Assembly (NCBI GenBank): GCA_004563595.2
Contig: CP042461.1
Span: 330,001 to 362,000 of the forward strand
Source of the DNA: Candidatus Saccharimonadota bacterium
GTDB lineage: Bacteria; Patescibacteriota; Gracilibacteria; BD1-5; UBA6164
Direction of reading: 5' to 3'
Length of the DNA stretch: 32,000 nt
Of this stretch, positions 233 through 29,085 are shown piece by piece (positions within the stretch are counted from its first letter, which is position 1; each line of letters begins with the position of its first letter). The translations under genes were made by a program, and so were the position numbers. Under the pieces are notes generated by a model. It did not search any database. It worked only from the letters and a program-made list of their open reading frames with translations, and had not been told where the DNA came from.

Positions 233-769
233 TTAAGCAGCTTTTTTGTAAGACTTCTTATTTTTTTTCATCTCGATTCTCTCAGAGAGTTCAATCCGAT
301 ATTTATTATTTTTTGGAGAGGTTCTTCTCCCATAGTCTTTACAATTTATTTTATACTTCTTCTTTGCATGATGAGTAAATAGAGCCATAAGACACTCTAC
401 TAAATCTTCTGCTGAGTCTTGTTTTAGGAATTTGGAAGCAGCATTACTTCCAAGACGTAACAAGGTTTCTAAAAAAAAGTATCTTTTCGTCCCATAGTAA
501 TTTTCAAGTATAATATTGTACTCAGTAAAATTATGGGATTTTTTTAGTATGACTTCTTCATTTGTAAAACGGCTACTTACGAGTACTCCTTTTTCTGTTA
601 GAATTAATCTTAATACAATACATGCAGCCTGCTTTCGATTTTTTTGAAAACCTTTTTGCTTTGCAACTGCGATAGCTAATTCGAATTGTTCATTTCCAAT
701 ATTTCGGAGATAAAAACAATCTTCTTTTTCTATATCTGTTTTAGTATCAACTGAAGTGAACTGTTTCAT
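233..769 (-). CDS. Hypothetical 178-aa protein, TGA-free, basic C-terminus
   Basis: Complete ORF under the standard code, ATG 767-769. GAAGGA lies 8 nt upstream of the ATG. All 6 Gly codons are GGN. I recognise no family. Confidence 0.6.
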   Translation of the reverse strand: MKQFTSVDTKTDIEKEDCFYLRNIGNEQFELAIAVAKQKGFQKNRKQAACIVLRLILTEKGVLVSSRFTNEEVILKKSHNFTEYNIILENYYGTKRYFFLETLLRLGSNAASKFLKQDSAEDLVECLMALFTHHAKKKYKINCKDYGRRTSPKNNKYRIELSERIEMKKNKKSYKKAA

Positions 770-8179: not shown

Positions 8180-8262
8180 GAAAAAAGTTGTCACACTATT
8201 ATGTTTCAAACGTATAAAAGCCTGTAGTCGCTACGATGAATTATATTTTAAAAAACTATATT

Positions 8263-9405
8263 ATGAAAAACTGAACAAAAAAAACTCTATTAACTACTAG
8301 TATTATATGACTTGCATTACTAGTAAATCCTGTTAGTGCAGCAAACCTATCATTTGATGAGGCATTTAAAAATCAAATTTTAGAAGAAGTTAAAATGGAA
8401 CTAAAAGATGAGGTAAACGGTGCAGAAGAAATAAACTCTATATCAAAAGAACTAGATGAGTTAATCAAAAATTGAGACCTTAAGAATAATCTTTTAACTG
8501 AGTTAAAAGAGGAAATAGCTTTTCTAAAAAATGCTGATTTTAAAAATCAATTAGCACAAGATTTAAAAAGCTTAGAGGAAATTAATGATGGAAAAAAGTT
8601 TTATGACGTATTGAATGATGTATATGAGAAATTAGATAATTATTATGAAGAGCATGATGAAGAGATAGAAGGTGAGGATGATTTTGAAGACTATAGTTAT
8701 AGTTTTACTAATGAAAAAACAGACATTATAGAAGCTTTAGAAGAAGAAGTGAGTTATATTAACGATAAAAAATTAAAAGACGTTGTAGTATCAACGATTC
8801 AAGAATTAAAATCTATAAATAATGAAGATACATTTTTTGAAAAACTTGATGTAACTTACGATAAATTAGATGAATACTTTGGAGAGGATGATGATTTCGA
8901 AGATGATAACTTTGAAGACGAATGAGAAGATTATAATTTTACAGAAGATAAAAAAGATATATTAAAGTATCTTTGAGATGAAATTAATAACTTAGAAGAT
9001 TCAACATTTAAATCTGATATGTTATCAAATATTCAAAAATTGAATGCTCAAAATAATGAAGATGATTTTTTTGATACATTAGATAAAGTTTATGAGAGTG
9101 TAGATAATTATTATGAAGAAAATGGAACTTCATTTAATGAAGACTTTGATTTCGAAGATATAGAAGACTTTGATTTTGATACTGAAAAAAAAGAAATTAT
9201 ACAATCTATTACTGAAGAAATTAATAGTTTAGATAATGAAGAATTAAAGAATGAACTCTTAGTGGCTTTGGAAAAAATAGAAAATGAAACAAACCCAAAT
9301 AATTTTTTCTCAAAAATTGATGATATATATGATATATTAGATGATTCATATGATGATTTTAATGATATTGATGATGAAGATGAATTTTTCGATGACGAAA
9401 AATAA
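8263..9405 (+). CDS. Secreted hyper-acidic tandem-repeat protein
   Basis: 381 codons (alternative in-frame ATG 8236). Signal peptide MKNGTKKTLLTTSIIGLALLVNPVSA|AN. The remainder is extremely D/E-rich and built from repeated modules. 5 in-frame TGA=Gly. Confidence 0.75.
8707..9402 (+). repeat. Three tandem ~75-79-aa coding repeats (8707-8940, 8941-9177, 9178-9402) plus a degenerate unit upstream (~8440-8706)
   Basis: Each unit has the form T-E/D-K-K-D/E-I-I..L..EI..L.D..LK......I..L....N.D.FF..LD.VYD.LD.YY.E....EDFDFED. Conservation is clear at the protein level and diverged at the nucleotide level. Confidence 0.7.
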
Positions 9406-26361: not shown

Positions 26362-27378
26362 ATGAAACAAAAATTTTTAGAAGCAACAAGAAACATACTC
26401 TTTCAAAATATGAGAGTCACTGATGAAAGAGTCGTATTAGTGTATGATTTGAATTCAGCGCTTTCAAAAGAAGTATCAGAATGATATATTCAAAACTTAA
26501 AAGAAAGAAAAAATACTGAGCTCATAGATTTTGATCAAATAGAAAAACCAGATTTGAAAGAAAGACTTTTTAATCTCATAGAATGATCAACAGTTATACT
26601 TGTCCAATCAACAAACTTTAGATTGGATGATTTTCGTATACGTCTTAATCTCCATAATGCTTGAGTATGATGCCTTGAACATAATCACCTTGCTTATATC
26701 AAAGATGATCAAATAGAAAATTATGCTGATGCTATTGAGTATAAAACTCCTTATTATGATCAGCTATCAAGTGCATTGAAGGATAAACTTGATAATGCAA
26801 ATAAGTTAACCGTTGAGACTTCAGGGAATTGAAGATTGGAGATTGAAGGTGGGTTTGAAAATATGAAGCAAAATACATGAAATTATAATTGAAAAAAGAG
26901 ATGAGGAACTTTTCCTATCTGAGAAAACTTCTCTGAAGCCAAAGATTTTGTACAAGTAAATGGTGAAATTACTATTTATGCCTATCCTGACTTCAACTTT
27001 GAAGTACAATTTTGTGAACCTTTCAGAATTAAAATTTCTGAGAGTAAAATTACATGTGATGATCAGAATTGTCCAGAAGAGTTCAGAAAACTATTAGATA
27101 AAATTAGTGATTCTGAAGATGGGGAAGTATTTATGAGAGAGTTATGATTTGGTATCAATACATGAATCACAAAACAAAAACCACTTTCGGATGTAAATGC
27201 CTTTGAGAGAGTCACATGATTTCATATGTCACTTTGAAAGAAACATAATATTTATAGAAAAAAAATTCATAAAAGTATTATTCAGAGGTATCATATAGAT
27301 ATTTTTCCAGATATAGAGAGGATACTGATTGATGGAGAGGTTGTTTTTGAAGGAGAAAAATATGTAATAGAAAAATAG
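26362..27378 (+). CDS. M29-like (AmpS/PepS-type) aminopeptidase, tentative
   Basis: 339 codons. ..RGGTFPIGENFSEA.., ..RELGFGINTGI.., ..TGFHMSLGKK.. resemble thermophilic metalloprotease (M29) motifs. The protein is shorter than typical members. Confidence 0.5.
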
Positions 27379-27410
27379 GCTAACCTTACGGTAAGCCTAT
27401 TTCTTTTTCT
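27373..27410. terminator. Bidirectional rho-independent terminator
   Basis: ataggctaacc-ttac-ggtaagcctat (one mismatch) followed by ttctttttc, between convergent gene ends at 27378 and 27418. Confidence 0.75.
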
Positions 27411-27417
27411 TTTCAAA

Positions 27418-28806
27418 TTACTGAGTCACAACTTTGAGACCATTAATTTGAGTACTGTTTTTTCCTCTTAAAAGTAATTTTAATTTAACTTCAGATTGTG
27501 TTAATCTATTTTTTAAGGTATTCCATTCTTCAAAGATTTCTATCGCTTTATTTGCTTTTTCTTTGTTTCCTGGAATTGCACTAATGACTGTATTATTTGT
27601 ATTAAATGTATTAAATGTTGTAGCTATAGTCACTGTAATTGAACTATCCTCAGCATTTGCATTTATTTGTTTAATAAGGTCATCAGCATCTTTTTTAGCA
27701 TCGTCATATATTGCTGTATATTTTGCTAAAGTTAATTGCTGTTTAATATCTGAAATATTCCCTTGTTCTGAGAGTATTTTAGAATATATATCTTCAAAAG
27801 ATAATAGTTCAGCAACATTATTTATTTCTAGCTGTAGATCTGTAACTTTTTTCTTTTCTTTTGTTGTAGAAGCGCCTGTTTTCAGAGTAATAAAGGTATC
27901 ATTGAGAAGTCTATTGAAACTATTTTTTAATAAATATTCACTTAAGATCGAATCATTCTGATCGAGATTATCTATTAAGTAAAGAGCAAATAGTCTTTCA
28001 TTTGATAAACGTTTTTTGCTTCCAAAAAGTAAATCATTTACTTCTACAGAAGAAGCTGTTAAATTTCCTTTATTTGTAGCATCAAGTACTTTTTGATTTG
28101 ACTTCACTTTAATTGTAGCGAGTTCGACACTTGCCTCAATGAAGTTTTCAACAGATCTACGCGAACATGAATCATGATACGTTCGAATTTCTCTTTGGGC
28201 CTCTTTATATGTATATGCTTCAGATGCAGATAAGAGAGTAGTTTTGTACTCTTTTCGTGCATTTTCAAGCTTACTATATATTTTTGGGAGGGTGCCATTT
28301 AGACGAAAATATCCTTTATGGTTTTCTATTCCAGCGTTTGTTGCTCCTAGCATAATAGAAAAAATACCCATACCTGTTGTACTTGAACCTGCTAGCCCAG
28401 CTATGCCTAGCAGGCTATCACCAATAATATTTATTAGGCCTTGGTTTGAATCTAGTTTGGTGTCTTTTGACATCATAGCATCAAACCAAATCCGACAAAG
28501 GTTATTAGAAGACGTTATAGCGGAATCAACTAAAAGTCTTATATTCTCAGGGCTTGGATTCCCCGCTTTAACCACCTCTCCTTTTTTATTTAAAGTACCT
28601 CGAACTATATTTTCTATAATAGTAAGATCTTTATAGTCCTGTTTTATTGACTCTAGTGATCCTTTTTCTGGATTTTCTAAATCCTGAATATTATAATTTA
28701 ATGGAGGTGCTAATGAAAAAGTTCTTTTCATTGCTCCATACGTTCCACAACCAGAAACGCTTATTAGTAACATTAATATGATGATTTCTCTCATACTTTT
28801 TTTCAT
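27418..28806 (-). CDS. TGA-free 462-aa lipoprotein with a central glycine-zipper hydrophobic segment and helical C-terminal half
   Basis: The only long standard-code ORF in the window. Signal peptide plus lipobox MKKSMREIIILMLLISVSG|C. GGAG lies 7 nt upstream of the ATG. All 25 Gly codons are GGN (hand count). I recognise no family. Confidence 0.85.
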   Translation of the reverse strand: MKKSMREIIILMLLISVSGCGTYGAMKRTFSLAPPLNYNIQDLENPEKGSLESIKQDYKDLTIIENIVRGTLNKKGEVVKAGNPSPENIRLLVDSAITSSNNLCRIWFDAMMSKDTKLDSNQGLINIIGDSLLGIAGLAGSSTTGMGIFSIMLGATNAGIENHKGYFRLNGTLPKIYSKLENARKEYKTTLLSASEAYTYKEAQREIRTYHDSCSRRSVENFIEASVELATIKVKSNQKVLDATNKGNLTASSVEVNDLLFGSKKRLSNERLFALYLIDNLDQNDSILSEYLLKNSFNRLLNDTFITLKTGASTTKEKKKVTDLQLEINNVAELLSFEDIYSKILSEQGNISDIKQQLTLAKYTAIYDDAKKDADDLIKQINANAEDSSITVTIATTFNTFNTNNTVISAIPGNKEKANKAIEIFEEWNTLKNRLTQSEVKLKLLLRGKNSTQINGLKVVTQ

Positions 28807-29085
28807 ATTTTTTCTCCACGTGGTCTAAATAATGAAAATGGGTTATATTTATTTTTGTTTTTTTTAGATTTCTTATTTTTATTTTTGTTAAAAAATCGGA
28901 GAGATTATACTGAACTGACATTAACAGGGCATTAATATTTGGAAGTTTTTATTTTTATAACTTGACATAATTGTAAAATATTGTAGTTAAATTGAGGGTA
29001 TTTATTATAATAAGAATTTTCATTTGCTAATATACTCATAATATATACACTAAAACCTGATTTATATAAATATATCTACTGTTAC

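Follow-up and report, generated by a model that had tools for sequence, protein, structure and literature searches.

A predicted lipoprotein gene in the closed 1.34-Mb genome that Sieber et al. 2019 (PMC6851277) described for Candidatus Gracilibacteria bacterium 28_42_T64 contains no in-frame UGA, the former stop codon that is the commonest glycine codon elsewhere in this genome. The gene (27418..28806, minus strand, with its ATG at 28806 and a TAA stop codon at 27420-27418; 462 sense codons) lies in the 32-kb stretch of DNA analysed here, which we call the window, and its product is identical to the GenBank hypothetical protein A9Q91_01805. Comparison with relatives in other genomes that use genetic code 25 (UGA read as glycine) shows that frame-specific purifying selection at translation, and not recency, keeps in-frame UGA out of the gene. 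The cause that we favour is a very high translational load, acting through the same selection that depletes UGA from the genes of ribosomal proteins, SecY and RNA polymerase; from the codon analyses, we give this explanation about an even chance of being correct.

Genetic code of the window and absence of TGA from the gene

The window has a guanine-plus-cytosine (GC) content of 27.9%. Open reading frames (ORFs) bounded by TAA and TAG fill about 90% of it, and code-11 ORFs only 8 kb. TGA occupies invariant glycine positions in MnmA (SGGxDS of the PP-loop), RecQ (PTGGGKS and GRGGRDG) and an M24 peptidase (HGVG), and the genome of the window therefore uses code 25. Across the 37 other window ORFs of at least 70 amino acids, TGA makes up 328 of 547 glycine codons (0.60), with 21/32 in MnmA and 33/68 in RecQ, in agreement with the half to two-thirds that the initial annotation had estimated for the neighbours. 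TGA is also present in all 14 further genes of the same genome found in the 7-10 kb flanks of the window. The recount of the 462-codon lipoprotein ORF gives exactly the 25 GGN codons (GGA 11, GGT 7, GGC 4, GGG 3) and zero TGA codons that had been claimed for it.

Such an absence had been thought unlikely by chance, and the tests run on the window bear this out: a binomial model puts the probability of 0/25 at 1.2e-10, and a beta-binomial fitted to the variation between genes puts it at 4.9e-7. That chance or a gene-calling artefact accounts for the pattern has a negligible probability in our view. In its favour is that one other of the 38 window ORFs, the short ORF 233-769, is likewise TGA-free with six glycine codons (all GGN), the single further case, as had been noted before; we see no further support for it. 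Against it, P does not exceed 5e-7 in the window and is about 1e-11 in a second genome (L084, see below), and the ORF is intact, conserved and annotated. Repetition of the TGA-free pattern in three genomes refutes this explanation.

Relatives in other code-25 genomes

Three members of the lipoprotein family were found in code-25 genomes: the window copy (P0001; W denotes this copy and its genome), the copy at locus L002 (P0002) and the copy at locus L084 (P0009). They have TGA at 0/25, 0/15 and 0/18 glycines, respectively, and all three carry GGAG, a Shine-Dalgarno (SD)-like motif, 7-8 nt upstream of the ATG. Each is a singleton cluster. P0002, encoded on a contig of 8.8 kb, is the best match of the window protein and a reciprocal best hit, at about 31-32% identity. 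Its gene has the same position and orientation as in W, in the order RecQ, lipoprotein gene, MnmA, membrane protein, YggU, GT1 and HrcA. The orthologues that neighbour the gene in W and L002 are 38-75% identical, compared with 32% for the lipoprotein pair, and the neighbours in L002 use TGA at 50 of 132 glycine codons. These two genomes suggest that the gene was already present before W and L002 diverged. In the more distant code-25 loci L003 and L004, obtained from a RecQ-anchored contig scan, the lipoprotein gene is absent beside RecQ.

P0009 is found in a differing gene context, on a code-25 contig of 25% GC where the neighbours use TGA for 285 of 375 glycines. Its glycine codons include 12 GGT out of 18, all nine of its arginine codons are AGR, and it has the top expression-codon score of its locus when glycine is set aside. 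In a neighbour-joining tree of the conserved family core (Poisson distances), P0001 and P0002 group together with 84% bootstrap support. P0009 and then the standard-code pair P0003/P0004 attach to this group at deeper nodes that are weakly supported (38-45%). P0003 is from a Gram-negative contig of 40% GC, where it lies among recombinase, TraG-like and Fic genes. The AT-rich family members P0028, P0008, P0130 and P0073 are all four in standard-code contigs.

Selection rather than recency

Six orthologue pairs that neighbour the gene in W and L002 hold 106 conserved glycines, which are encoded as TGA/TGA in 28 cases, TGA/GGN in 41, GGN/TGA in 13 and GGN/GGN in 24. These numbers match independence, and exchange between TGA and GGN has thus been saturated since W and L002 split. 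The lipoprotein pair has five shared glycines and 30 lineage-specific ones, all of them GGN; 22 of 60 lineage-specific glycines of the neighbours are TGA, giving a probability of about 1e-6 for the lipoprotein pair. The avoidance is restricted to the reading frame, as the density of off-frame TGA in the lipoprotein gene equals that of its neighbours. This normal off-frame density also rules out avoidance of the TGA motif as such, for example as an RNase or restriction target. GC at third codon positions (GC3) is close to that of the neighbours in all three genomes (W 0.184 vs 0.201; L002 0.179 vs 0.163; L084 0.150 vs 0.143). Given saturation, the restriction to the frame, native GC3 and the host-like copy of L084, lack of time is insufficient as the cause.

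The initial annotation had offered acquisition from a standard-code donor, with later compositional amelioration but no gain of TGA, as one of three explanations. It does not suffice, since the diverged syntenic orthologue is also TGA-free while the choice between TGA and GGN has been randomised in the neighbours, and since the L084 copy still has no TGA at 18 glycines when its arginine codons have become fully host-like. We therefore regard it as very unlikely that the gene is a recent neutral transfer that retains its SD motif and CGN codons as relics. Several features would fit such a transfer: the SD motif, CGA and CGG codons, and CGN at conserved arginines in the W and L002 copies; a GC content slightly above that of the neighbours; a family centred in standard-code bacteria; and ORF 233-769, which has the same trio of features. 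Against these stand the same site and orientation in W and L002, among neighbours that are 38-75% identical with saturated synonymous sites, and a GC3 that is no different from that of the neighbours, so that synonymous sites are not atypical in composition and the extra GC sits in codon positions 1 and 2. No donor-like sequence of more than 45% identity was found in a library of 1.84 billion representative sequences. The L084 copy has AGR at every arginine and a host-optimal codon score, but no TGA, which encodes 76% of the glycines in its genome. Three independent recent events would be needed. Insertion by a mobile element is excluded by the lack of tRNA genes or flanking repeats beside the lipoprotein gene. 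The statement in the initial annotation that the rest of the codon usage is native holds for GC3 and not for arginine, where CGN makes up 7 of 16 codons, compared with 12% in the rest of the window. The gene is a long-standing resident of the chromosome. Most of its family is found in standard-code bacteria, and these were very likely the source of its ancestor.

UGA avoidance in heavily translated genes

Code-25 rpoC loci came from metagenome contigs in which the catalytic motif NADFDGDQM was sought with TGA as its glycine codon, and others from a search for L7/L12, among whose 120 listed matches the protein of the window genome did not appear. Ribosomal-protein genes were compared in four code-25 loci, L095, L149, L172 and L177; L171 and L155 were left out as they are not TGA-recoded. 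In the four loci, TGA encodes 22 of 291 glycines in ribosomal proteins (7.6%) and 216 of 473 in other genes (45.7%). It is absent from L7/L12 in all four (0/10 to 0/14) and from SecY (0/39), and is found at 10/40 glycines of EF-Ts and 128/588 (22%) of RpoB/C. Of 79 rpoC loci, 57 were comparable, and in 44 of these the TGA share of RpoB/C is below that of other genes. In code-25 bacteria, the genes of ribosomal proteins, of SecY and of RpoB/C favour GGT instead. The depletion of TGA in these three sets indicates that UGA avoidance marks heavily translated genes. Within the window, the expression-codon score of genes is negatively correlated with their TGA fraction (Spearman -0.37, p = 0.04). 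With no TGA at 25 glycines, where ribosomal-protein genes have 7.6% and other genes 46%, the lipoprotein gene shows the strong in-frame depletion of the highly expressed class. The comparison with highly expressed genes thus qualifies the exceptional status that the gene was first given: UGA-free genes are typical of the translation core, while the count of zero in 25 stands.

In the literature searched, UGA avoidance in ribosomal-protein, SecY or RNA-polymerase genes is not reported. Liu et al. 2023 (PMC10746230) speculated that dense TGA use reflects codon optimisation, which is contradicted by the TGA depletion of these genes.

Two observations on annotation arose from these loci. In L155 (Ga0194137_10016953), rpoC has TGA at the glycine of the catalytic motif NADFD-G-DQM (400-426) and the locus has no other, with 78 GGN codons in rpoC, plus the S12 and S7 genes. 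This lone TGA could be a sequencing error, or the lineage could use UGA for glycine very sparsely. L177 (CP060224.1, GCA_023898445.1) and L003 (CAYWJC010000050.1) are labelled Candidatus Peribacteria and have abundant in-frame TGA at glycine, so both use code 25. The recorded gene calls of L177 are in code-11 style, with RpoB in at least five pieces and S2 in two. Either the taxonomic label or the code annotation of L177 and L003 looks wrong.

Translational load as a proposed cause, and the evidence against it

If translational load is the cause, UGA, read by tRNA-Gly(UCA), would be the costly glycine codon, either slow or error-prone, and would be purged from mRNAs under very high translational load. 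The product of the lipoprotein gene would be a very abundant envelope lipoprotein. Its gene would be transcribed alone, from its own promoter region to its own terminator, and ribosomes would be loaded via an SD site, which very few other genes of these genomes possess. Avoidance of UGA in a very highly expressed surface protein had been among the explanations first proposed. It gains from the TGA depletion of ribosomal-protein, SecY and RpoB/C genes in four other code-25 genomes and loses from the window gene's lack of optimal-codon bias at other amino acids.

Several results weigh against this explanation, starting with the fact that the ribosomal evidence is from four other loci and not from the window genome. 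The non-glycine codon signature of ribosomal-protein and RNA-polymerase genes agrees among three genomes (r = 0.5-0.7), with AGA, CTT, ATT, TCT, ACT, GCT and CAA up and CGA, ATA and TTA down. The window gene is anti-correlated with the ribosomal signature (r = -0.37 to -0.53) and ranks 35th of 38 on the non-glycine score, although this low rank weighs less as minus-strand genes generally score low. The L002 copy is roughly neutral on this signature, and only the L084 copy is positive. The window gene contains three CGA codons and one CGG, which are rare codons shunned by ribosomal-protein genes; only 13 are present in the whole window, and the nine outside the lipoprotein gene (CGA 7, CGG 2) are spread over 9,087 codons, with three of them in ORF 233-769 (Fisher 7e-6). 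At shared conserved arginines, the W and L002 copies both have CGN in four cases out of four, whereas CGN/CGN occurs once among 46 conserved arginines of the neighbouring orthologues. Such retention of CGN resembles a foreign signature, or may reflect a constraint of another kind.

An SD motif precedes 2 of 38 window genes and 5 of 419 surveyed code-25 genes, or 2/416 outside the lipoprotein family; genes were called as plain TAA/TAG ORFs from the first ATG, which makes this survey noisy. No SD motif was found before about 28 genes checked in three ribosomal-protein loci, implying that native genes do not reach high expression by way of SD. Moreover, two pilin-like genes beside a T2SSE ATPase gene to the right of the window in the same genome (L001, 182-1732 and 2921-3478) use TGA freely, at 35/56 and 9/15 glycines, and thus not all surface or secreted proteins of 28_42_T64 avoid UGA. 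The three lipoproteins are also more TGA-depleted than ribosomal proteins (0/58 vs 22/291, Fisher p = 0.03).

With regard to the rare arginine codons, Shulgina and Eddy 2021 predicted reassignment of CGA/CGG to tryptophan in Absconditabacteria, and of CGG to tryptophan in some Gracilibacteria. The CGA and CGG codons of window ORFs sit at arginine positions wherever this can be judged (e.g. LRG in RecQ, codon 545).

Alternative forms of selection

The absence of general codon optimisation from the W copy fits a different form of selection, one for expression independent of UGA on physiological grounds that have nothing to do with bulk abundance. The protein may be needed at times when tRNA-Gly(UCA) is in short supply, damaged or targeted (under stress or phage attack, or on exit from dormancy), or misreading of UGA may be intolerable in this lipoprotein. 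The absolute depletion, which exceeds that of ribosomal proteins, and the strictly in-frame avoidance are consistent with this. So are the proteomics of a BD1-5 bacterium by Hanke et al. 2014 (PMC4032931), which recovered a few non-glycine peptides at UGA, tryptophan included. On the other hand, there is no direct evidence of conditional UGA decoding in code-25 bacteria, and PADLOC finds no signature of a defence system; we consider this explanation rather unlikely.

A second alternative, to which we assign a slightly lower probability still, is that compatibility with both codes is itself selected. The gene would then have to function in standard-code bacteria that use SD motifs as well, either because it is repeatedly exchanged with hosts or mobile elements or because the host cell expresses it. 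What keeps the idea alive is that an SD motif, CGN arginine codons and the lack of TGA are the traits of an ordinary standard-code gene. Among the 419 surveyed code-25 genes, the combination of an SD motif and absence of TGA is confined to the lipoprotein family. CGN at the conserved arginines of the W and L002 copies is shared with the proteobacterial relative P0003, the sister clade P0003/P0004 is standard-code, with P0003 surrounded by recombinase, TraG-like and Fic genes, and most of the family is found in standard-code bacteria. There is also a precedent: Liu et al. 2023 (PMC10746230) report no in-frame TGA in 34 of the 38 phages that they predict for Gracilibacteria. However, the close homologues that either exchange or acquisition would lead one to look for were not found. 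No close standard-code copy exists among about 15 billion proteins, where the best matches have 38-44% identity in the core, and searches of GenBank phages, PLSDB plasmids and IMG/VR were empty, as were those of PHROG and PADLOC. Mobile-element genes, tRNA genes and flanking repeats are lacking in W, L002 and L084, the synteny of W and L002 indicates vertical descent, the codon usage of the L084 copy is native, and there is no known mechanism by which a host cell would express the gene. It is accordingly doubtful, at that same low probability, that the family has been kept over a long time in the standard bacterial dialect (no UGA, SD, and partly CGN arginine) for the sake of standard-code ribosomes.

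The protein and its family

The translation begins with the signal peptide MKKSMREIIILMLLISVSG-C (28747..28806, minus strand), which ends in a lipobox (VSG-C, with the cysteine at position 20), matching the pattern [LVI][ASTVI][GAS]C of bacterial lipoproteins (substrates of Lgt and LspA) and in support of the original description of the gene. The N-terminal basic and hydrophobic leader followed by VSG-C is like that of known bacterial lipoproteins with type II signal peptides; the mature part differs from these in matching no Pfam, NCBIfam, PDB or BFVD entry. Neither lgt nor lspA was found in the approximately 50 kb of the 28_42_T64 genome examined. The lipobox is seen in most of the 141 relatives, which were recovered by an exhaustive phmmer search (E-values 9e-36 to 1e-3; 142 cluster representatives at 50% identity with E <1e-3). 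A word-indexed homologue search recovered only the query protein itself, and a profile built from the three code-25 members matched two of those members and nothing else. As the amino-acid compositions of the family range from AT-rich to GC-rich, it is found mainly in standard-code bacteria.

The conserved family core covers approximately residues 81-313 (27866..28565, minus strand), or 80-285 on a tighter delimitation, and includes C104, N126, N157, R184, Y210-H211 and C214-S215-R216. These are invariant or near-invariant alignment columns, and the window protein carries them. Arginines of the core are encoded by CGN at R105 (CGG), R168 (CGT), R184 (CGA), R208 (CGA) and R216 (CGT). An AlphaFold (AF2) model built from the 141-sequence alignment is all-helical, with a predicted local distance difference test score (pLDDT) of 77, rising to over 85 at approximately residues 81-340. 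Foldseek comparison of the model with the PDB and BFVD gave no significant fold match, and the window protein has no match in Pfam, NCBIfam, PHROG or PADLOC. By its sequence it is a predicted lipoprotein in an unannotated all-alpha family.

Beside the standard-code family members in L083, L176 and L173 lie genes for CHAT/TPR proteins, an LCAT-like lipase, a trypsin-like protease, proteins of Amidase_2 or DUF2272, or a combination of Fic, recombinase and TraG-like genes. P0008 has, in its variable C-terminus, a marginal match to EndoU nuclease (26.2 bits vs a cut-off of 25.3). These neighbours and the EndoU match hint at a role related to conflict or effectors.

Flanking signals and gene layout

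The SD-like GGAG lies on the minus strand at 28814..28817, 7 nt before the ATG as first described, and the L002 and L084 members share the motif at 7-8 nt. The contrast drawn with nearly all neighbours is upheld by the survey of window genes given above. Overlapping the SD motif is the previously reported 8-bp palindrome CCACGTGG (28816..28823), which is not conserved in the L002 and L084 relatives. The gene stands alone between a putative bidirectional terminator and a spacer of 279 nt (28807..29085, upstream on the minus strand; initially given as 280 bp) that separates it from the divergent recQ. The spacer contains TATAAT at 28909-28904, within a block partly common to L084 (TTAAT..AGT.TAATC). 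A generic promoter scan called no promoter in the spacer, and no Rfam element, riboswitch or known RNA was found in the 5' region of the gene. Downstream, 27370..27415 holds a hairpin with T-runs on both strands, with a stem of 11 bp at 27400-27375 that has one mismatch and a GTAA loop. It is likely that this hairpin is a bidirectional terminator common to the lipoprotein gene and the convergent ORF 26362-27378, although a generic terminator scan did not call it.

SD motifs are almost absent from the window and from L172, L095, L149 and L177, ribosomal-protein genes included. In L177 and L172, many genes have TTTAT or TTTAC approximately 17-22 nt before the start codon, a spacing that suggests promoters just upstream and very short leaders. 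ORF 233-769 (minus strand), which encodes 178 amino acids with no family match, is the only window gene besides the lipoprotein gene with an SD-like motif (AAGGA, upstream); it is TGA-free between TGA-rich neighbours on both sides, and may be a foreign or standard-dialect gene. Another gene of the window (8236-9405, plus strand) encodes a secreted and extremely acidic protein of 389 amino acids with no family match and normal TGA use (5/10). This protein has four or five internal repeats of about 60 amino acids with the motif ..FF..LD.VY..LD.YY.E..

Comparison with known systems and significance

Translational selection on synonymous codons is well known in highly expressed genes such as those of ribosomal proteins, EF-Tu and Lpp of E. 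coli. The present case is alike in that a synonymous codon is purged with translational load, down to 7.6% in ribosomal-protein genes and to zero in SecY, L7/L12 and the lipoproteins. It differs in that the avoided codon is a reassigned stop codon and the majority glycine codon of the genome (60%), and in that the window gene lacks optimisation at other amino acids and uses the rare codons CGA and CGG. There are also SD-poor bacterial lineages with a special SD-led gene, for example rpsU in Bacteroidetes. The likeness is that in these SD-poor code-25 genomes, one gene family keeps a well-spaced GGAG. The anti-SD motif is described in one paper as missing mainly in some Parcubacteria; none of the loci analysed here contains a 16S sequence. 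The code-11-compatible phages predicted to infect Gracilibacteria and Absconditabacteria (Liu et al. 2023, PMC10746230) resemble the window gene in having no in-frame TGA and non-TGA stop codons, in the gene TAA, so that both are translated alike under codes 11 and 25. In contrast to these phages, the gene stands singly on the chromosome, among TGA-rich neighbours (MnmA, a hypothetical ORF and RecQ), with no phage or plasmid genes nearby and no phage, plasmid, IMG/VR or PHROG match. Integrated prophages were found to be TGA-dense in the same study.

Were compatibility with two codes after all the explanation, no other cellular gene would have been shown before to be kept usable under two genetic codes, and the family would parallel, in cells, the code-11-compatible phages. 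It would also imply exchange with, or expression in, the standard-code bacteria on which these episymbionts live.

UGA is the commonest glycine codon in these genomes and is yet shunned in ribosomal-protein, SecY and RNA-polymerase genes. If this holds, decoding of UGA as glycine would still be a second-rate step long after reassignment. This would bear on how codon reassignments mature, and on the picking of highly expressed genes in uncultured code-25 bacteria. TGA depletion together with the unique SD motif would also single out the lipoprotein family as probably a main constituent of the Gracilibacteria envelope, and as a candidate for their host-contact biology.

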